Virus record (IMG/VR): IMGVR_UViG_2724679238_000007
Coordinates: 1-42,109 of that record
Length of the DNA: 42,109 bases
Direction: 5' to 3' (one strand)
DNA from: a virus
Taxonomy: Duplodnaviria; Heunggongvirae; Uroviricota; Caudoviricetes
Shown here: one piece after another, positions 1 to 30,535 of the stretch
Position numbering within the stretch: the first letter of the stretch is position 1
Layout of the letters: each line of letters starts with the position of its first letter
Translations under genes and position numbers: made by a program
Notes under the pieces: model-generated
Told to the model about the DNA's origin: nothing
Databases searched by the model: none
What the model saw: the letters and a program-made list of their open reading frames with translations, nothing else

Positions 1-1804
<1,804 letters not shown>

Positions 1805-1847
1805 TGGTGCGAGGATTGGTTGATACCCTCCACCTCCTGAAGAAATT

Positions 1848-1874
1848 ATGCCCGGCATCAACCGGGCATTTTCC
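1848..1874. terminator. bidirectional intrinsic terminator between convergent baseplate and ant genes
   Basis: ATGCCCGG-catcaa-CCGGGCAT hairpin followed by TTTTCC on the plus strand and flanked by an A/T-rich stretch on the other side. Confidence 0.55.
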
Positions 1875-1875
1875 A

Positions 1876-2988
1876 TTATTCAGCCGCCACCGGTTTTAAC
1901 AAGCCAGCATCGAGCAGTTTACGCGTCAACCACTGCTGGCCTTTCCCCGTTAATTGAGGCGTCAGCCGTATCTGGTAGCCATCTTCATCATCCAGCACCA
2001 CTTCTTTCACTGTGAAATATCCGGCGTTTATGTACTGCTGAAACGGTACATTTTTACGTCCGCCGGACGCAATCAGGATGCCGTTCTCCCGTAACCAGGC
2101 AAACAGCGCATTTTGCTTAAGTCCAACAACCTTTGCAAAATTCCCAATCAGGATCCCCTTCGCCACTGATACCCGATCGGCAAAATCGACTTTGGGTGCT
2201 GCGGCCACCAGTTGTTGATTTAGCTGGTGGGCCTTCTGTTCCAGTAGCTGCTTTTGTTCAGCCAGCTCGGCAGCCAGACGCAGAGCTTCTGGAAGCGTCT
2301 GGGGGATTGCGATCGGTTGCTGTTCTTTTTGTCGGAAGTAGCTGTCTTCCAGTTTTTCAAAGAATGCCCATGCTTCATTTGTGTCCACGATCTTAGACAT
2401 GCGTGCAGCGCCGCGCTCTGTCCAGAGTGTAAGGCTTCTGGCGTTCTTACCAACAGAGTAACTTCCGGTTACTCTGTTCTTAAATTCTCTTAATTTTAAA
2501 CCAGTTAGAAGAAAGTAATGCTTACCTTCTTCAAAGCGGTCAAGGTTGCGAGACAAATTGTTGCGAATATTGGCTTCATCGACCCCATACCCTCTAGCAA
2601 GAGTTTCGGTTGTCACGACACGTACTCCCTGCCATTCCAGAACGGGAATTTCATCCGGCTGATTCTGAACAACCACCAGTTCCGATTCCTGAACTGAAGG
2701 TGCATAAATTTTTTCTGATTTAACGTTAGTTGCTTTCATTCTGTGTGCCTCCTTGCGTGCTTCGGCTGCGACGGTTGCATAATTCAGATGCCCCTGTTCG
2801 AGCAGGTATTCACGAATATCAGACAGCAGAATGCGGTGAACCGCGTTCTTGTCCTTTCTCCGGTAAAGTTGTTTGGTGATCATGAAGTAGTTGGCAATCA
2901 CGCCCGGTATATCCCTGGTACTGATACAGGCTGTGTGCTGTTCAATTGCCTCGATCATCTCTTCACGGGTGACTAATGACGTTCTCAT
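1876..2988 (-). CDS. ant: phage antirepressor Ant (N-terminal ORF6N/Bro-N-like plus C-terminal KilA-C/ANT domain), copy 1
   Basis: 370 aa; C-terminus (AKVVGLKQNALFAWLRENGIL...YINAGYFTVKEVV...TGKGQQWL) is the KilA-C/ANT signature; start overlaps the icd-like stop by 4 nt; lies downstream of a C1 operator and a c4-like region, as in the P1 immI layout. Confidence 0.8.
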   Translation of the reverse strand: MRTSLVTREEMIEAIEQHTACISTRDIPGVIANYFMITKQLYRRKDKNAVHRILLSDIREYLLEQGHLNYATVAAEARKEAHRMKATNVKSEKIYAPSVQESELVVVQNQPDEIPVLEWQGVRVVTTETLARGYGVDEANIRNNLSRNLDRFEEGKHYFLLTGLKLREFKNRVTGSYSVGKNARSLTLWTERGAARMSKIVDTNEAWAFFEKLEDSYFRQKEQQPIAIPQTLPEALRLAAELAEQKQLLEQKAHQLNQQLVAAAPKVDFADRVSVAKGILIGNFAKVVGLKQNALFAWLRENGILIASGGRKNVPFQQYINAGYFTVKEVVLDDEDGYQIRLTPQLTGKGQQWLTRKLLDAGLLKPVAAE

Positions 2989-3206
2989 AGCCCCTCCTGA
3001 GCAGAAGCGTTAACAGTGAGGCACCAGTAACTGAGAGAATTGCGCAAATCGGTAGAAAAGCGAGCAGAGAAAATACAGGGAGCATCCGGAAGCTGAGAAC
3101 GTGCCTCATCTTCTGTTGGTGCGATAACGAAGTGATAGTGACGTTTTTGACAAGAATAGAAACGCCAGATGAATTCTTGGCGTGCGCAAGGATTGGCATT
3201 AACCAT
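2985..3206 (-). CDS. icd: Icd-like small protein (host cell-division inhibitor family by position), copy 1
   Basis: 73 codons starting at the internal ATG (MVNANPCARQEF...); same length and position as P1 icd; translationally coupled to ant; RBS overlaps a c4 target octamer. The 139-aa extension in the ORF track is not supported by the paralogue. Confidence 0.6.
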   Translation of the reverse strand: MVNANPCARQEFIWRFYSCQKRHYHFVIAPTEDEARSQLPDAPCIFSARFSTDLRNSLSYWCLTVNASAQEGL

Positions 3207-3242
3207 AGTTACGGCCTCATTCGTAGGTTTAACAACCTGCGA

Positions 3243-3330
3243 CCCGCTGCTAAACGGGTGGCAGGACGTGACGGGGTTAGCAGACTGGCACGAATGAAAC
3301 CAGCAGGCCGAAGCCTCCCCACCACGCCCC
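3243..3330 (-). ncRNA. c4: c4-type antisense RNA, copy 1 (boundaries approximate)
   Basis: Non-coding stretch between the operator/promoter and icd. It contains CACGAATG (3289-3296) presented between a CTGG/CCAG stem, complementary to CATTCGTA present both upstream (3402-3409) and at the icd RBS (3218-3225). It also contains a UUCG hairpin and a 7-bp CTGCTAA/TTAGCAG stem. Confidence 0.45.
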
Positions 3331-3507
3331 ACCATAATTTGGGCGTAACGCGGTTTTACGGACATAAAAATACCGCAATATCGGAAATCTGCGGTTGTCC
3401 GCATTCGTATTCAGGCTGCTAAACCCGGTCGCAGAATTTGCTACGACGGCGGAACTATAAGCCTGAACAACAGGAAGATCAATAGTCTGGCGTTCGATGG
3501 TAGTTTA

Positions 3508-3540
3508 TTTGCTCTAATAAATCAAATTTATTAGAGCAAT
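3508..3540. promoter_or_regulatory. pair of abutting, inverted C1-repressor operators controlling the c4-icd-ant (copy 1) promoter
   Basis: 3524-3540 is a perfect reverse match to ATTGCTCTAATAAATTT; 3508-3524 is a 14/17 forward match. Confidence 0.75.
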
Positions 3541-3586
3541 AAGCGGTGTCGTAAAAATCAATACAATCACAATCATATGAATAGAA

Positions 3587-4585
3587 TCAATCATTACCGC
3601 GCGACGGTTTCTGCGTGATAAACGTATCAAGCATCTTTTCCGCAATTGCCGACCAGGTGTGACACTGGACCTTTTCAGCATTTTTCACGCGATCAATGCG
3701 AGCAATAACCTCATCCCAATCAATCCGCGACTTGATAACCATATGGTTCACCAAAGCCAGGCGATCCGGCGGAAGACAATCGGGCGGCGTTAATATCAAC
3801 GCCCCACACATTGCCGCCTCAAGAACAGTTAATCCAAGGCTTTCGGGATGCGTAACGATAAAAACGTCACTCTTACGCAATTCAGCTGCAAATTCGGTTG
3901 CTGGTACCGGCGTCCGTCTGTATGGGGTTACCGATATATTCCCTGGATCAATGGTAATCAATCCGTCATCGGTCAACGTTCTGGCCTCATACGGAACGGT
4001 CAGACGCTGAAGGTTCATAAGGATACTTAAGGAGTGATCAAAACCACTAACATCAAATGCAGCGTGGTCTACAAAAATACGCAGAACATCGTCTGTTTTG
4101 GTTTCCAGATGGAACAGCTCCTGATTCGCTGCCCATCCAACATGTTTGTTAAAACGATTATGGCGCTCTAACCTGCCGGGATTATCCAGGTACCGCCAAG
4201 TATCATCGCGGACAGTAAAAGTAATATCGACTGGTGCCGAATCCAGCATAGAACCGTCGTATACCTGGGCTACCCATCCAGTGAATCGAAGACGCAGTTG
4301 CACGCCTATTTCCCTGGGCACCGTAGTAAAATACCGCAATCCTGGCGCTAAAATGGCTTTCGCAGAACACGAGGTCGCAGCGGTCAACACAGCTTCAACA
4401 TAATCCTCCGGGCTTTCGACGCCGGGGGAATATGGACGATGGTATTGCAATGTTACCCCAGCCTCACTAAAGGCGCAGGCCAGGTTATAAGCCCACATTT
4501 CCGTATATGTTTTCACATCACTGATGGCTTCAAATTTTCGCCCAATGATCAGGATGTTCATCGGCTTTTCCTCATTCCATTGCAT
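3587..4585 (-). CDS. Dbn-like protein with a GT-B glycosyltransferase-like C-terminal motif
   Basis: 332 aa; start overlaps the ban stop (TAATG); motif HPESLGLTVLEAAMCGALIL resembles the GT4 donor-binding E-x7-E region; position matches P1 dbn. An alternative start at 4561 has a better SD. Confidence 0.55.
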   Translation of the reverse strand: MQWNEEKPMNILIIGRKFEAISDVKTYTEMWAYNLACAFSEAGVTLQYHRPYSPGVESPEDYVEAVLTAATSCSAKAILAPGLRYFTTVPREIGVQLRLRFTGWVAQVYDGSMLDSAPVDITFTVRDDTWRYLDNPGRLERHNRFNKHVGWAANQELFHLETKTDDVLRIFVDHAAFDVSGFDHSLSILMNLQRLTVPYEARTLTDDGLITIDPGNISVTPYRRTPVPATEFAAELRKSDVFIVTHPESLGLTVLEAAMCGALILTPPDCLPPDRLALVNHMVIKSRIDWDEVIARIDRVKNAEKVQCHTWSAIAEKMLDTFITQKPSRGND

Positions 4586-6230: not shown

Positions 6231-6306
6231 TGGTGACCCCTACCGGACTTGAACCGGTGACCGTGCGATTATGAGTCGCCAGCTCTAACCACTGAGCTAA
6301 AGGGCC
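6231..6306 (-). tRNA. tRNA-Ile2 (anticodon CAU, ileX-like; Met not excluded from sequence alone)
   Basis: 76 nt cloverleaf read by hand: acceptor GGCCCTT/AGGGGTC, D-arm TAGCTCAGTGGTTAGAGC, anticodon loop CTCATAA, T-loop GGTTCAAGTCC, encoded CCA; very similar to E. coli ileX as recalled. Confidence 0.75.
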
Positions 6307-7721: not shown

Positions 7722-7797
7722 TGGCGATGGTGGGTGGATTCGAACCACCGACCAGTTAGTTAACAGCCAACTGCTCTAACCGCTGAGCTACACCATC
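7722..7797 (-). tRNA. tRNA-Asn (anticodon GUU)
   Basis: 76 nt: perfect acceptor GATGGTG/CACCATC, D-arm TAGCTCAGCGGTTAGAGC, anticodon arm GTTGG-CTGTTAA-CTAAC, T-arm GGTGG-TTCGAAT-CCACC, discriminator G plus CCA. Confidence 0.8.
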
Positions 7798-8459: not shown

Positions 8460-8487
8460 ATTACACTAATAAATTTATTAGAGCAAT
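8460..8487. promoter_or_regulatory. overlapping inverted pair of C1 operators (palindromic bipartite operator) at the 3' end of dmt
   Basis: 8471-8487 is a perfect reverse match to the C1 consensus; 8460-8476 is a 15/17 forward match; the two overlap on AAATTT; positioned to control leftward transcription into the tRNA-tci-ban-dbn region. Confidence 0.7.
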
Positions 8488-12421: not shown

Positions 12422-12698
12422 GTTGTAACCCTTGAATATCAACCACAGAAAGCTCGTCTTTGTAGAAAAAGGCCAGGTTGTGGCACCCCCTCGTTTGAGC
12501 GTATGAGCTGGGACCAATTTCGTTCTTCCAGACAAATGGCTTCAAATCCGTACGGCGAAGCATAAAAACGCGATTTGTTCCGCTCTGATTCCCAATGAGG
12601 CAAAAGCCTTCTTTCACCTTGATAGCCTGCAAGTTGTCGAGTTCACCGCTGGTTACACGGCTATCGAACTCCTTGCGGCTTATTAGCTCCATCTGCAT
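12414..12698 (-). CDS. hypothetical protein (first gene of the C1-controlled operon containing hrdC and dmt)
   Basis: Internal ATG at 12698 has a GGAG SD 7 nt upstream; the longer ORF would start inside the operator/promoter. Confidence 0.4.
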
Positions 12699-12769
12699 CT
12701 GACGACTCCAAACAAATGCCCATTGAAGGACGATGGCTGAATGGTACCGAAAACACGACATAAAAAACA

Positions 12770-12786
12770 ATATTTATTAGAGCAAT
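12770..12786. promoter_or_regulatory. C1-repressor operator upstream of the hrdC-dmt operon
   Basis: ATATTTATTAGAGCAAT is a 16/17 reverse match to the C1 consensus. Confidence 0.65.
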
Positions 12787-12867
12787 TTTACAATAGATAA
12801 ACGCCATGTAGCCCACAAACAACCTAAGTTAAAATAACGAAAATCAGAGCAAATAATTGGTGATGAC

Positions 12868-13152
12868 GTGGCAAGTATTGCAACAAAAGACAGCATTTGT
12901 TCGGGGCACGGAGGATTCCCATCCAGGCCTCCTGTAGAGAGTGAACCACTACTTAAAGTCAACGGAGTCGAAGTGTTAGTTGATGGTAAGCAATATGCAC
13001 AGCATACCGATGGAAACAGTACGCACGGTGGGCAAGCTATATCAACCCGGGCATGGTTTACCGTCAATGGTAAAGGGATCGTATGCGTTGGTGACCCTGT
13101 TTCATGCGGCTCTACCGTAGCGTCAGGAGACGGCCTGGTTCAGGTAAGTTAG
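12868..13152 (+). CDS. PAAR-like domain protein (candidate spike-tip protein)
   Basis: 94 aa, GTG start; motifs DSICSGHGG, VNGVEVLVDG and VNGKGIVCVGDPVSCGSTVASGDGLV resemble PAAR repeats with Cys/His metal ligands. Confidence 0.45.
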   Translation: MASIATKDSICSGHGGFPSRPPVESEPLLKVNGVEVLVDGKQYAQHTDGNSTHGGQAISTRAWFTVNGKGIVCVGDPVSCGSTVASGDGLVQVS

Positions 13153-13160
13153 GAGACATC

Positions 13161-13949
13161 ATGCTGGAAAAAGACTACCAGTTATCCGCATATAAAAAAT
13201 TGGCCGCCGCCGGTGGGATGAAAACACCTGGTGCCATAACATCGGCACGAAACAGTGCTAACACAGCAAAACTGCTTGCAGAAGAATTGACCGGATTAAT
13301 TCTGGATACAATTGTCTATCCCGACACTATTACCAGCTATGTTTCAACGATCAGAACAACCACAACCGGCTTAACGAACATTGGAGAACTGGCAACTAAG
13401 CACGCGGACCTGTTGGCTGGTTATGCAGATCTGTCAATGCTGCTTCAACTCGATATTGGTTGGGATGTTTACTGCCGTGCTAATGAGCGAGAAGTTTCAG
13501 AACTGCCGATCTCTATTGCCATTGGTGATGTGACTATTACTAAATCGCTTGAGGACGCTGTAAACGCGCTTAATACATCAAGTTTAGTTGCTGCTATGGG
13601 GGAGATTAACAAGACCCTTAACACTGGCTCAGGAAGCTCGTCAGGCTCTAATTCAGGCGGTGGGATTGCCACTCCCCCACCAGCACTAACAGAAAAGCAA
13701 ATTGAAGCTCTGAAAGTAGCAACTGAACAGTTTGGGGTAGTTTTCAACCAAACAACAGCGCCCACAACTGCGTTGCAACAGCAGTATGAACGGGCGAAGG
13801 AAAGCGCAAGCATAGCCATAACTGCTTATAACCGTGCTATTGGTACCGCGCTTGCGGAAGCATCAGCAAATAAGGCCAGCACAGCCAGCGCAGTCGCAGC
13901 TTTAGTTCCTGATTCTGTTCTTGATGAATTAAATAAGGCTGCACAGTAA
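13161..13949 (+). CDS. hypothetical protein (Ser/Thr/Ala-rich)
   Basis: ATG at 13161 preceded by AGGAGA SD; 262 aa; no recognisable motif. Confidence 0.5.
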   Translation: MLEKDYQLSAYKKLAAAGGMKTPGAITSARNSANTAKLLAEELTGLILDTIVYPDTITSYVSTIRTTTTGLTNIGELATKHADLLAGYADLSMLLQLDIGWDVYCRANEREVSELPISIAIGDVTITKSLEDAVNALNTSSLVAAMGEINKTLNTGSGSSSGSNSGGGIATPPPALTEKQIEALKVATEQFGVVFNQTTAPTTALQQQYERAKESASIAITAYNRAIGTALAEASANKASTASAVAALVPDSVLDELNKAAQ

Positions 13950-13987
13950 CAAAGGACTTCACAGATAATTTTCTTCAGGAGGAAGGC

Positions 13988-14410
13988 ATGTCATTCTTTT
14001 CTACGTTAAAAACAGCTTTGTCTTTGAAGGAGAAACTTGCTGCTACTGGTGTTCTTGTTCTGATTTGCGCACTCGCTGGTGCAGGGTTTGCATGGGAGCA
14101 TTATCAGTTAAAGCAAGCCTTAGAGAAAATTGGCAGTCTTGATCAAGCTGTTAAGGAACGAGATAAGTCAATCAGCGAGCTTAATCAGACCATTGAGACT
14201 ATGAACAAAGCAGATCAACATTTTCACAGCCAGGAAGTGAAAAATGAATTAGAACAAGCCAAGTATGCTGACAGGCAAATGGAACGAAAAGCAGAAGTTC
14301 AGAAACAACTGGTTGCGGTGGGTAATGTTCGCCAGCGCATTCCTGCTGACACTCAGCGGTTGCTCCGGGAGTCGATCAGCGAATTTAACTCCGACGCCGA
14401 CAAAGGTTAA
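13988..14410 (+). CDS. i-spanin-like protein (Rz-type: N-terminal transmembrane helix plus coiled-coil periplasmic domain)
   Basis: 140 aa; hydrophobic segment VLVLICALAGAGFAW followed by a charged heptad-like region; overlaps the next lipoprotein gene in another frame. Confidence 0.5.
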   Translation: MSFFSTLKTALSLKEKLAATGVLVLICALAGAGFAWEHYQLKQALEKIGSLDQAVKERDKSISELNQTIETMNKADQHFHSQEVKNELEQAKYADRQMERKAEVQKQLVAVGNVRQRIPADTQRLLRESISEFNSDADKG

Positions 14411-17470: not shown

Positions 17471-18667
17471 ATGAGTGATTCCAGCCAGCTTCACAAGGTT
17501 GCTCAAAGAGCAAACAGAATGCTCAATGTTCTGACTGAACAAGTACAGTTGCAAAAGGATGAGCTACACGCGAACGAGTTTTACCAAGTCTATGCGAAAG
17601 CGGCACTGGCAAAATTGCCTCTACTGACTCGAGCGAACGTTGACTATGCCGTAAGTGAAATGGAAGAAAAGGGTTATGTTTTCGATAAACGCCCTGCTGG
17701 CTCTTCAATGAAATATGCGATGTCAATTCAGAACATCATTGACATATATGAACATCGCGGAGTGCCAAAATACCGGGATCGCTACAGCGAAGCGTATGTG
17801 ATTTTCATCTCCAATCTTAAAGGCGGTGTGTCAAAAACTGTATCGACGGTTTCTCTGGCGCATGCAATGCGTGCTCACCCTCATCTTCTGATGGAAGATT
17901 TAAGGATTCTGGTTATTGACCTTGATCCGCAATCTTCAGCAACGATGTTTTTAAGCCATAAACACTCTATTGGTATCGTAAACGCAACATCTGCACAGGC
18001 TATGTTGCAGAATGTAAGCCGTGAAGAGCTGTTAGAGGAGTTTATTGTTCCTTCTGTTGTACCTGGGGTTGACGTTATGCCTGCGTCGATTGACGATGCC
18101 TTTATTGCATCCGATTGGAGAGAGCTGTGCAATGAGCATCTACCGGGTCAGAACATCCATGCTGTCCTGAAAGAAAATGTGATTGATAAGCTGAAGAGCG
18201 ATTATGATTTTATCCTCGTTGATAGTGGTCCTCACCTTGACGCCTTCCTGAAAAATGCTTTGGCCTCGGCCAATATACTGTTTACACCTCTGCCACCAGC
18301 AACGGTCGATTTCCACTCATCGCTTAAATACGTTGCCCGCCTTCCTGAGTTGGTGAAACTCATTTCGGATGAAGGCTGCGAGTGCCAGCTTGCGACTAAC
18401 ATTGGTTTTATGTCCAAGTTGAGTAACAAGGCAGACCATAAGTATTGCCATAGCCTGGCGAAAGAAGTTTTCGGTGGGGATATGCTCGATGTCGTCCTCC
18501 CTCGCCTTGATGGTTTCGAACGCTGCGGCGAGTCCTTTGACACTGTTATTTCTGCTAATCCGGCAACGTATGTTGGTAGTGCTGACGCACTGAAGAACGC
18601 GCGTATCGCCGCTGAAGATTTTGCAAAAGCAGTTTTTGACCGTATTGAATTTATCAGATCTAACTAA
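17471..18667 (+). CDS. parA: partition ATPase ParA (Walker-type, large N-terminal HTH form)
   Basis: 398 aa; deviant Walker A (NLKGGVSKTVS); N-terminus MSDSSQLHKVAQRANRMLNVL... matches P1 ParA as recalled. Confidence 0.95.
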   Translation: MSDSSQLHKVAQRANRMLNVLTEQVQLQKDELHANEFYQVYAKAALAKLPLLTRANVDYAVSEMEEKGYVFDKRPAGSSMKYAMSIQNIIDIYEHRGVPKYRDRYSEAYVIFISNLKGGVSKTVSTVSLAHAMRAHPHLLMEDLRILVIDLDPQSSATMFLSHKHSIGIVNATSAQAMLQNVSREELLEEFIVPSVVPGVDVMPASIDDAFIASDWRELCNEHLPGQNIHAVLKENVIDKLKSDYDFILVDSGPHLDAFLKNALASANILFTPLPPATVDFHSSLKYVARLPELVKLISDEGCECQLATNIGFMSKLSNKADHKYCHSLAKEVFGGDMLDVVLPRLDGFERCGESFDTVISANPATYVGSADALKNARIAAEDFAKAVFDRIEFIRSN

Positions 18668-18683
18668 GGAGTAAGAAAACGCC

Positions 18684-19685
18684 ATGTCAAAGAAAAACAG
18701 ACCAACAATTGGGCGAACCCTTAATCCTTCAGTATTAAGCGCATTTGATAGTTCCTCTGCCTCTGGTGATCGGGTTGAGCAGGTATTCAAGTTATCAACA
18801 GGTCGCCAGGCCACATTCATTGAGGAGGTAATCCCTCCGAACCGGGTAGAAGATGATACCTTTGTTGATCAGCATAACAACGGACGTGATCAGGCAGCTC
18901 TTACACCAAAATCATTAAAAAGCATCAGAAGCACCATTAAACATCAGCAATTTTACCCTGCAATAGGTGTTAGACGGACTACAGGGAAAATTGAAATTTT
19001 GGATGGTTCCCGGCGTCGAGCTTCTGCCATCTTAGAGAACGTAGGGTTGCGGGTTTTAGTCACGGACCAGGAGATCAGCGTTCAGGAAGCGCAAAATTTA
19101 GCGAAAGACGTTCAGACAGCATTGCAGCACAGCATTCGAGAAATAGGTCTGCGTTTGATGCGAATGAAAAATGATGGAATGAGTCAGAAGGATATTGCCG
19201 CTAAAGAAGGGCTATCTCAGGCGAAGGTCACGCGTGCTCTTCAGGCTGCGAGCGCTCCGGAAGAATTAGTCGCTCTTTTCCCTGTGCAGTCGGAATTAAC
19301 CTTTTCGGACTACAAAACGCTTTGCGCTGTTGGCGATGAAATGGGGAATAAGGATTTAGAGTTTGATCAGCTTATTCAAAACATATCCCAGGAAATAAAC
19401 GACATCTTATCCATTGAAGAAATGGCCGAAGATGAAGTGAAAAATAAAATCCTTCGCCTGATAACAAAGGAAGCCTCGTTACTCACGGATAAAGGCTCTA
19501 AAGATAAGTCTGTAGTTACTGAATTATGGAAATTTGAGGATAAAGATCGTTTCGCAAGGAAGCGTGTGAAAGGCCGTACCTTTTCCTATGAGTTTAATCG
19601 TCTCTCCAAAGAGTTACAGGAAGAACTTGACAGGATGATTGGGCATATCCTTAGAAAGAGCCTCGATAAAAAGCCGAAGCCTTAA
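18684..19685 (+). CDS. parB: partition protein ParB (centromere-binding)
   Basis: 333 aa; MSKKNRPTIGRTLNPS..., HTH region and C-terminal dimerisation region match P1 ParB as recalled; immediately followed by parS. Confidence 0.95.
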   Translation: MSKKNRPTIGRTLNPSVLSAFDSSSASGDRVEQVFKLSTGRQATFIEEVIPPNRVEDDTFVDQHNNGRDQAALTPKSLKSIRSTIKHQQFYPAIGVRRTTGKIEILDGSRRRASAILENVGLRVLVTDQEISVQEAQNLAKDVQTALQHSIREIGLRLMRMKNDGMSQKDIAAKEGLSQAKVTRALQAASAPEELVALFPVQSELTFSDYKTLCAVGDEMGNKDLEFDQLIQNISQEINDILSIEEMAEDEVKNKILRLITKEASLLTDKGSKDKSVVTELWKFEDKDRFARKRVKGRTFSYEFNRLSKELQEELDRMIGHILRKSLDKKPKP

Positions 19686-19687
19686 AC

Positions 19688-19775
19688 TTTCGCCATTGAA
19701 ATTTCATTTGTAACCATCTGTTTTTAAAGTAAATTCATCTAAAATTTCAAGGTGAAATCGCCACGATTTCACCTT
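19688..19775. promoter_or_regulatory. parS: parS centromere site (box B TCGCCA and box A ATTTCAC motifs flanking an A/T-rich IHF-type core)
   Basis: TCGCCA at 19690-19695 and 19758-19763; ATTTCAAGGTGAAATCGCCACGATTTCAC at 19744-19772, which I recall as the P1 parS right arm. Confidence 0.85.
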
Positions 19776-25997: not shown

Positions 25998-26184
25998 CAG
26001 TGCAGTAAAAAATTCCTTGCTCCTTGACAGAGGAGAGGATTAATCTAAGTACGCTAAGCATAGGTATGGCCCCGGTTAATGTTAAGCGTTGTGCGGGACG
26101 CATAATGTTTACTGGGGCTTTCTTCTATCTGCTTTTCGGGTAATACCTGAAGCTGATAGCCTCAAGCACACCGCAGCGGGTGTA

Positions 26185-28848: not shown

Positions 28849-28865
28849 AAATTTATTAGAGCAAA
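28849..28865. promoter_or_regulatory. C1-repressor operator upstream of kilA-repL
   Basis: AAATTTATTAGAGCAAA is a 16/17 reverse match to the C1 consensus. Confidence 0.7.
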
Positions 28866-28942: not shown

Positions 28943-29986
28943 TTAACCTATTGCTACTGGTTTTAACAAACCAGCATCAAGTAGCTTGCGAGTTAACCAC
29001 TGCTGGCCTTTACCCGTTAATTGGGGCGTCAGCCGTATCTGGTAGCCATTTTCATCATCCAGCACCACTTCTTTCACCGTGAAATACCCGGCGTTAATGT
29101 ACTGCTGGCGCGGTACGTTTTTGCGCGCACCAAAAGCCATGAGAATGCCGTTCTGGCGCAACCATGAGAAAAGGGCGTTTTGCTTAAGTCCAACGACCTT
29201 TGCAAAGTTCCCGATCAGGATTCCATTAGCCGCTGATACCCGGTCGGCAAAATCGACTTTAGGGGCTGCGGCCACCAGCTGTTGTTCCAACTGCATTTTC
29301 TGTTCTGCCAACTCGGCAGCCAGGCGTAGAGCGTCTGGTAATGTTTGGGGGATCGATGGGGCAGGGGAGTTTGCCTGCTGCAATTCTTCCAGTTTGTCGA
29401 TCAGCGAACGGCGGACTGCTTTTGACTCGCGCGCGGCGACTCGCAGGGCTTGTTTGTAGGTCATGGTTATGACAACCATAGGCGTACCGCCACCTGGCGG
29501 CACGGTTGCACTTTTTGTGTAACCGTCCTCACCTTCTAATTCGTCGAGTATTTTTTTGATGAATTTGTTGTTCCGAACCTCTGGTTCCCCACATAACTTA
29601 CGCGCTTCATTGACCATCTTTAACAGCGTCTGGCTGTCGATTGTGTCTCCAGTGTTGGAGATAACATTCACAGCTGGTGATGGCGTAGCTGAAGCAACAG
29701 GTGCTGGTTTTTCAACATTCAAATTATTACCGGTCATTCTGCGCGCCTCCTTTCTCATTTCTGCTGCCACTGTTGCGTAACGTAGACGTCCTTGTTCAAT
29801 CAAATAATCCCTGATCTCGGCTATCAGTAGCTTGTTGATCACAGCCTTATCTGTTCGGGTATAAAAACGTCTGGTTATCATGAAATAGTTGGCAATTGCG
29901 CCGGGGATCTCCCGTGTCGGCATACAGGTTGTATGCAGGGCGATCGCTTCGGCTATTTCATTACGGGTGACGAGAGGTTTTTTCAT
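28943..29986 (-). CDS. ant: phage antirepressor Ant, copy 2
   Basis: 347 aa; N- and C-termini near-identical to copy 1 with a divergent middle; overlaps the icd-like stop by 4 nt. Confidence 0.8.
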   Translation of the reverse strand: MKKPLVTRNEIAEAIALHTTCMPTREIPGAIANYFMITRRFYTRTDKAVINKLLIAEIRDYLIEQGRLRYATVAAEMRKEARRMTGNNLNVEKPAPVASATPSPAVNVISNTGDTIDSQTLLKMVNEARKLCGEPEVRNNKFIKKILDELEGEDGYTKSATVPPGGGTPMVVITMTYKQALRVAARESKAVRRSLIDKLEELQQANSPAPSIPQTLPDALRLAAELAEQKMQLEQQLVAAAPKVDFADRVSAANGILIGNFAKVVGLKQNALFSWLRQNGILMAFGARKNVPRQQYINAGYFTVKEVVLDDENGYQIRLTPQLTGKGQQWLTRKLLDAGLLKPVAIG

Positions 29987-30204
29987 AAATCCCCCTGAAC
30001 GTCGGCAGAGAAGGGGAGGTTCCAGTAACTAAGTGAATTGCGCGAGTTAGTTGAAAAACGGGCAGTAAAAATGCAGGGGCCATCAGGCAATTGAGAGCGT
30101 GCTTCGTCTTCTGTTGCTGCGATGACGAAGTGATAGTGGTGTTTTTTACAGGAATAGAAACGCCAGATGAATTCTTGGCGTGCGCAAGGATTGGCATTAA
30201 CCAT
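29983..30204 (-). CDS. icd: Icd-like small protein, copy 2
   Basis: 73 aa (MVNANPCARQEFIWRFYSCKKHHYHF...), paralogue of 2985..3206. Confidence 0.6.
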   Translation of the reverse strand: MVNANPCARQEFIWRFYSCKKHHYHFVIAATEDEARSQLPDGPCIFTARFSTNSRNSLSYWNLPFSADVQGDL

Positions 30205-30240
30205 AGTTACGGCCTCACAATCAGGTTTAACAACCTGCTA

Positions 30241-30328
30241 CCCGCTGCTAAACAGGTGGCAGGACGTGACGGGGTTAGCAGACTGGCGATTGTGAAACCA
30301 GCAGGCCGAAGCCTCCCCATCACGCCCC
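30241..30328 (-). ncRNA. c4: c4-type antisense RNA, copy 2, with an altered recognition octamer (boundaries approximate)
   Basis: Same architecture as copy 1, but the loop octamer is CGATTGTG (30287-30294), complementary to CACAATCA at 30216-30223 (icd RBS) and 30400-30407. Confidence 0.45.
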
Positions 30329-30518
30329 ACCATAATTTGGGCGTAACGCGGTTTTACGGACACAAAAATACCGCAATATCGGATATCTGCGGCTGTCCGC
30401 ACAATCATTCAGGCTGCTAAACCCGGTCGCAGAATTTGCTACGACGGCGAAACTATAAGCCTGAACGATTAAAAGGTCAATATGATGCGAAAAGATAGCA
30501 TTCGCGACTTAAAAATAC

Positions 30519-30535
30519 AAATTTATTAGAGCAGA
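30519..30535. promoter_or_regulatory. C1-repressor operator upstream of c4-icd-ant copy 2
   Basis: AAATTTATTAGAGCAGA is a 15/17 reverse match to the C1 consensus. Confidence 0.65.

Follow-up and report, generated by a model that had tools for sequence, protein, structure and literature searches.

The window analysed here, a stretch of 42,109 nucleotides (nt) given by IMG/VR virus record IMGVR_UViG_2724679238_000007, is that of a P1/P7-like phage-plasmid and is 99.8% identical to plasmid pEA32_2 of Escherichia albertii BIA_32 (NZ_CP117602.1) over the 2 kb tested. It carries two c4-icd-ant modules, the kind of immunity region (immI) that in phage P1 specifies the antirepressor Ant1/Ant2 together with the c4 RNA that represses Ant synthesis (PMC8546580). 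Both modules were found where the initial annotation had placed them, module A at 1876-3540 and module B at 28943-30535. Module A is a full c4-icd-ant set with a predicted C1 operator and adjoins dbn-ban. On the minus strand, ban (5955-4585) and dbn are followed by module A; genes 6 and 5, late genes of the plus strand (163-1804), converge on it. Module B is 97.7% identical to P7 and lies in the P1-like position with kilA-repL next, as had been proposed. P1 and P7 each carry one immI, in agreement with the single copy that the annotation had given for P1.

Table 1. Features of modules A and B and of the genes flanking module A, in window coordinates.
Feature	Position	Strand	Details
C1 operator, module A	3524-3540	-	ATTGCTCTAATAAATTT; 17-bp consensus, 0 mismatches
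Inverted second operator half-site	3508-3524	+	TTTGCTCTAATAAATCA; 3 mismatches
Weak promoter-like TTGATT-17-TACCAT	3497-3525	-	Overlaps both operator halves; 8/12, under scanner threshold
Sigma-70 promoter-like TTGATC-17-TATAGT	3454-3482	-	9/12; aligned with P1 promoter P1c4 (formerly P51b), annotated -35/-10
Upstream target region	3402-3460	-	a1 TTAGCAG 3416-3422; b1 ACGAATG 3402-3408; Rfam RF03163 (c4-a1b1) match at 3408-3460, 56.2 bits, threshold 46.7
c4 antisense RNA, module A	3257-3333	-	77 nt by homology with annotated P1 c4; Rfam RF01695 (C4) match at 3254-3339, 71.1 bits, threshold 45
c4 elements, module A	3290-3297 (b' loop); 3277-3283 (a')	-	b' TCATTCGT; a' CTGCTAA
Downstream target, icd leader	3215-3253	-	a2 TTAGCAG 3247-3253; b2 ACGAATGA 3217-3224
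icd, module A	2985-3206	-	73 amino acids (aa); homologue of the Icd cell-division inhibitor
ant1, module A	1876-2988	-	370 aa; Ant1-like N-terminus, ORF6N and KilAC in that order
Predicted in-frame ant2	1876-2739	-	Internal ATG 2739-2737, preceded by AAGGAGG 2754-2748 (N8 spacing)
Bidirectional terminator-like hairpin	1848-1869	both	Common to ant (-) and gene 5 (+)
dbn (left flank)	3587-4585	-	
Gene 5, baseplate (right flank)	1172-1804	+	
Module B	28943-30535	-	Canonical immI, then kilA-repL
Module B operator	30519-30535	-	
Module B c4	30255-30331	-	a' CTGCTAA, b' TCACAATC; identical to P7 c4; Rfam C4 match at 30252-30337
Module B icd	29983-30204	-	
Module B ant1	28943-29986	-	

With its outer signals included, module A spans 1845-3545 on the minus strand and reads operator, promoter, a1/b1, c4, a2/b2, icd, ant1/ant2 and terminator (Table 1). 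It belongs to a family of accessory cassettes that occupy several intergenic sites of P1-like plasmids, namely after cre-cra, between pro and lyz and, in the window and in locus L093, after dbn. The two operator half-sites form a bivalent palindromic operator whose 14-nt arms (3509-3522 and 3526-3539) are 100% complementary, an arrangement present in 26/28 accessory-site cassettes compared with 2/80 canonical immI copies. Seven operator-like C1 sites were observed in the window against 0.27 expected by chance. Judged by its position relative to the P1 annotation, the weak promoter-like sequence overlapping the operator may hold the place of the C1-controlled promoter P51a.

The terminator-like hairpin forms the right end of the cassette, where homology to other cassettes stops, and the cassette as a whole stands in place of the 46-bp intergenic terminator between dbn and gene 5 of P1. 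Terminal inverted or direct repeats flanking 1845-3545 and a transposase open reading frame (ORF) were looked for and none was found. The lack of terminal repeats indicates recombination, not transposition, and a cassette borne by a transposon or insertion sequence was ruled out on these findings. The stretch from the dbn stop codon to the operator of module A (3541-3586) shows no evident terminator, the dbn/gene 5 terminator of P1 having been replaced; transcripts of the C1-controlled ban-dbn operon could therefore run on into the c4 of module A (c4A), icd and ant.

The Icd protein of module A matches the NCBIfam model phage_ICD_like (NF033153, 2.3e-13), although a Pfam search returned no family, and is 79% identical to the Icd of module B. 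The stop codon of icd overlaps the start of ant (ATGA, 2985-2988). The product of ant1 in module A (AntA) contains an ORF6N domain (PF10543, 2.5e-18) and a KilAC domain (PF03374, 1.6e-31). The latter covers residues 258-359 and scores 109.3 bits against a cut-off of 25.3, above the gathering score, which places AntA in the family of KilAC-domain phage antirepressors. AntA is 99% identical to a JL22 protein named 'Roi' and 57% identical to module B Ant1, which is without ORF6N. The description of the two Ant proteins as alike at their termini and different in the middle was borne out, with conservation of the first ~90 aa and of the KilAC domain at the C-terminus, and with ORF6N present in A only. 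The candidate ant2 start aligns with the annotated ant2 start of P1, and the RKEA(H/R)RM motif of P1 Ant1 is kept, so that nested ant1/ant2 frames are predicted as in P1.

Base-by-base alignment of modules A and B with P1 and P7 revealed three 6-nt blocks that have shifted together. The non-coding regions of A and B had been called near-identical except in short blocks; their identity is 89-94%, and the blocks that differ are exactly b1, b' and b2. The blocks correspond to the elements of antisense specificity, altered in concert, and are the main biological point, which the initial annotation missed. The b1/b2 and b' sequences are ACGAAT and ATTCGT in module A, GATTGT and ACAATC in P7 and module B, and GTTAGT and ACTAAC in P1, while module A has a elements of the P7 type (TTAGCAG/CTGCTAA). 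Relative to the resident P7-type c4, the b' loop of module A differs at 5/8 positions, and b1 and b2 are altered along with b', so that each c4 should fully match its own target only. Both a' and b' of module A are perfectly complementary to a2/b2 and to a1/b1, and b2 overlaps the icd Shine-Dalgarno sequence GAGG (3215-3218). Cognate b' and b2 form eight Watson-Crick pairs, whereas the b' of module A pairs with the b2 of module B at 3/8 positions only. The corresponding b duplex energies were about -19 kcal/mol for cognate and -9 to -13 kcal/mol for non-cognate combinations, the equivalent values for the a segment being contaminated by flanking bases. The predicted fold of c4A (-42.1 kcal/mol) is that of P1/P7 c4, with b' placed in a hairpin loop and a' single-stranded.

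The pairing elements were compared across about 200 P1-type c4 copies, gathered by pattern scans of IMG/VR and metagenome contigs and from loci already collected. These copies hold 12 b' types and two a' types in 18 combinations, and a and b therefore assort independently. Among 199 copies, b' was complementary to b2 in 134/135 and to b1 in 172/174, and a' to a2 in 134/135 and to a1 in 171/174. When the set was reduced to 57 distinct sequences, 99.1% of cells were paired for b'/b2 and a'/a2 and 98.5% for a1/a' and b1/b'. This alignment contains about 200 double-sided changes, and controls in which the partner was slid by 1-3 columns were 28-49% paired. Most of the sequence variation within c4 falls in b' (0.9-1.6 bits) and a' (1.0 bit). 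The ACGAAT key is not exclusive to the window, since the b2 38-mer has exact matches in 73 PLSDB plasmids and the key is found in the canonical immI adjoining kilA-repL of NZ_CP027133.1 (locus L015). A search with Icd on genome contigs gave only six loci.

A few sets are mismatched. In L062, where c4 lies 136 nt into the minus strand, b' is ATTCGT and b2 is of the P1 type GTTAGT; in L176, a' is unlike both a1 and a2; and in L151, L154 and L173 the a1b1 block is of another type than c4. Such sets may mark breakpoints of recombination in the regulatory region, with derepressed and virulent-like variants as the outcome, or may stem from chimeric assembly. In more distant c4 modules (L118, L124, L142, L143, L098 and others) the c4 core is retained and a/b covariation is perfect. 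Their leaders are different, as are their b types (TTGAAC, TTTGTC, TCTGAC and CTTTTC), and another first ORF (MAK...) replaces the P1-type icd. As perfect covariation is kept in these modules, the two-site code reaches beyond close P1 relatives.

These results bear on whether module A could be a decaying or silent relic, a non-functional leftover of recombination without a regulatory role. That most P1-like elements are without module A shows accessory modules to be dispensable, which would accord with a relic. However, the ORFs are all intact, the operator is a perfect consensus and b1, b' and b2 are perfectly complementary. Module A is, moreover, 99.8% identical in an independent plasmid, and its cassette family is intact and conserved at several sites in dozens of elements. 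The sustained three-way covariation, in turn, implies selection on pairing. A relic is accordingly considered unlikely.

Binned identities along its length reveal module A to be a mosaic. The operator/promoter segment is 87-92% identical to accessory cassettes at other sites, compared with 72% to module B and 72-74% to canonical modules generally. The c4 segment is 94-99% identical to canonical immI regions of the ACGAAT type (L015, NZ_CP027133.1), compared with 89-94% to module B. The 3' half of icd together with ant is 96-100% identical to cra-site cassettes and, in ant, to L005 and JL22, compared with 28-66% to module B in the middle of ant.

The initial annotation had taken the two modules for a duplication with divergence inside the genome, with a copy of module B arising in the dbn/gene 5 region in this lineage and diverging afterwards. 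The common gene order, the 89-94% identity of the regulatory core and the shared Ant termini all fit such a history, but every segment of module A has much closer kin elsewhere than module B, which argues that module A is not a local duplication. The bivalent operator and ORF6N are, in addition, traits of the accessory-cassette lineage. Duplication in situ is thus an improbable origin. The reading that we favor, and hold with considerable confidence, is that module A is an intact ~1.7-kb accessory immI cassette that replaced the dbn/gene 5 terminator, that was gained or put together by recombination, not by duplication in place, and that follows a P1/P7-like mechanism.

By analogy with P1/P7 immI, module A probably works as an immI repressed by its own c4. 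A promoter outside C1 control would transcribe a1/b1, c4, a2/b2, icd and ant, and the 77-nt c4 RNA would be excised from that transcript. Pairing of a' and b' with a2 and b2 would mask the icd ribosome-binding site and leave icd untranslated, and ant1/ant2 would also go unexpressed because ant is translationally coupled to icd. The second, weak promoter under the bivalent C1 operator would add C1 control. Work from the Schuster laboratory reportedly established c4 processing and a course of translational repression followed by premature termination. By homology to P1, Ant1/Ant2 would inactivate C1 and the c4 RNA would stop Ant synthesis. Because each c4 fully matches its own leader only, both modules should be self-silenced in a lysogen. 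A lysogen making several c4 types would silence the ant of more kinds of incoming P1-like phages; on infection by this phage of a lysogen without the matching c4, at least one Ant would escape repression and inactivate the resident C1.

The same layout could be viewed as a host-directed or plasmid-maintenance device, with c4 as antidote and Icd as toxin, that serves addiction or abortive infection apart from C1 immunity. The Icd family inhibits cell division according to its annotation, the c4/icd arrangement resembles an RNA-antitoxin system, and modules accumulate on plasmids that already bear phd/doc and a sok-like RNA. Such a device is nevertheless hardly to be expected here, given that the cassette always retains the C1 operator and a full-length Ant and that the established role of the operon in P1 is antirepression (PMC8546580).

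The initial annotation had asked whether related genomes have one module or both, and whether the two-copy layout is standard. The end-to-end arrangement of the module at the gene 5/dbn site was found in 2/72,556 PLSDB plasmids, both from E. albertii of wild birds on two continents, and in none of 5,426 complete Escherichia coli genomes. Both flanks were matched by 18 P1-like phage records, and not one has an insert at the gene 5/dbn junction. The two plasmids, NZ_CP117602.1 (99.8% identity) and CP045689.1 (97.8%), were closed independently and have the same arrangement, and L093 is a third element bearing ban-dbn-module-gene 5. In L128 (2549-9655) a dbn-site module is joined directly to c1-cre, and in L074 (1-5127) to cra; these joins suggest genome rearrangement, or draft misassembly, through repeated ant/c4 cassettes. 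Although such repeats can mislead assemblers, as those two draft contigs illustrate, a collapsed or misjoined repeat that put an immI copy beside dbn is extremely unlikely and was rejected, because the same junctions occur in the closed plasmids and in L093 and because A, only 28-94% identical to B, is too diverged for collapse.

Plasmid pEA32_2 holds four c4-icd-ant modules, partly beyond the window. The first, between pacB and c1, is of the isrK/C4 type; the second, at the cra site, combines an a element of the P1 type with a b element of the P7 type and encodes a 465-aa Ant; the third is module A, with a of the P7 type and b ACGAAT; and the fourth is module B, keyed as P7. The two modules outside the window lie at 12566-14160 and 17839-19720 of NZ_CP117602.1 (L017). 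The pacB-c1 module has isrK and a divergent C4, and its intact ant ORF is unlisted in the PLSDB gene table. At the cra site, the 465-aa Ant combines an Ant1-like middle with an ORF6N domain, and the Icd shares its protein accession with that of module A. Across nine multi-module elements assembled from the loci, the same (a',b') pair was never held by two co-resident modules.

A wider interpretation, advanced tentatively, is that antisense immunity in P1-like phage-plasmids follows a combinatorial two-site code, borne on mobile operator-to-terminator cassettes, and that up to four differently keyed modules are stacked in an arms race. On this interpretation, at least 12 b loops and two a elements would recombine freely and the cassettes would move between intergenic terminator sites. 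Each added c4 would broaden the range of superinfecting relatives silenced by a lysogen, and each added Ant the range of lysogens overcome by a phage. Diversifying selection would act on the b loop and yield a natural library of orthogonal RNA-target pairs.

Several observations weigh against the reading favored for module A. The absence of identical pairs among ~15 within-genome pairs has an estimated chance of about 0.17 and is not significant. The a element is common to modules A and B, and in pEA32_2 the b element is common to the cra-site module and module B; with a or b elements shared, strict orthogonality is not guaranteed and partial cross-talk is possible. Intramolecular structure dominates in whole-molecule RNAcofold, so that the gains were ~0 with all c4/target pairs; they were uninformative and not used. 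The c4 scan pattern held the bases flanking b' and a' constant, which biases the sample toward close relatives. Finally, binding of AntA to C1 is an assumption, its middle domain being unlike that of P1 Ant1.

P1/P7 heteroimmunity is the textbook case of immunity specificity set by antisense RNA and has been treated as two alleles of one locus. The window and its relatives hold many more specificities, two independently assorting recognition elements and several intact, differently keyed modules per genome. The covariation suggests that the modules are orthogonal; if so, this would account for coexistence or exclusion among P1-like phage-plasmids, elements that are frequent in E. coli, E. albertii and Salmonella and in some cases bear resistance genes. 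Immunity regions as hot spots of variation and rearrangement would be accounted for likewise, and synthetic regulation would gain a ready supply of short orthogonal antisense/target pairs already validated in nature.

Other features of the window include further C1 operator matches. Two overlapping sites at 8460-8487, which form a bivalent pair upstream of the tRNA/ban region, are probably the operator of the ban operon; a single match lies at 12770-12786, and the kilA operator is at 28849-28865. Two tRNA genes, at 6234-6306 and 7725-7797 (both minus strand), lie downstream of the upstream region of ban and match the tRNA cluster known in P1. An Rfam match to the sok antitoxin RNA at 26003-26171 on the minus strand (62.5 bits, threshold 59) suggests a post-segregational killing locus of the hok/sok type.

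Parts of this picture have precedents. C4 and c4-a1b1 are Rfam families described by Weinberg et al. 2010 (PMC2864571), icd-ant homologues in region RD-1 of pSvP1 were reported by Venturini et al. 2019 (PMC6906374), and an ant inserted between pacB and c1 in RCS47 and pTZ20_1P was noted in passing (PMC6906374). In the searchable literature, no account was found of further c4 specificities or of independent a/b assortment, nor of the bivalent-operator cassette family, the dbn/gene 5 site or four-module genomes, and no analysis was found of the specificity elements in the cra-site and pro-lyz cassettes.

Compared with P1/P7 immI (Op51, P51a/b, a1b1, c4, a2b2, icd, ant1/ant2), module A has the same order of elements. 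It shares the 17-bp C1 operator, the aligned promoter, the 77-nt c4 with the same predicted fold, two-site a/b recognition with b2 at the icd ribosome-binding site, a 73-aa icd coupled to ant by ATGA, and the nested ant1/ant2. It departs from them in its b key, ACGAAT/ATTCGT in place of GTTAGT (P1) or GATTGT (P7) and combined with a P7-type a. Its operator is bivalent and palindromic whereas theirs is monovalent, and the middle of its Ant is ORF6N. Furthermore, its place is between dbn and gene 5, whereas P1/P7 immI adjoins kilA-repL, and module A is co-resident with a canonical immI. The ACGAAT immI of NZ_CP027133.1 has identical a and b elements and a c4 segment 94-99% identical to that of module A, but it is the only or canonical copy, with a monovalent operator, a 1044-nt ant of the Ant1 type and kilA-repL next.

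Other close counterparts are the accessory cassettes at cre-cra/mat (NZ_CP027590.1 and RD-1 of pSvP1) and at pro/lyz (pEA18_2). Like module A, they have a bivalent operator, a P1-type c4, an ORF6N-KilAC Ant (96-100% identical) and equal cassette limits; they differ in insertion site and usually in b type (GTACAT at the cra site). The pacB-c1 ant module of RCS47, JL22 and pTZ20_1P encodes an Ant 99% identical to AntA with an icd-like ORF ahead of it. That module is driven by a divergent C4-family RNA (RF01695) and an isrK-like RNA (RF01394), without P1-type a/b elements, whereas Rfam detected no isrK-like RNA within the window and c4A is of the P1 type. The mechanism is a familiar one; the multiplicity of modules and their combinatorial keying are not.

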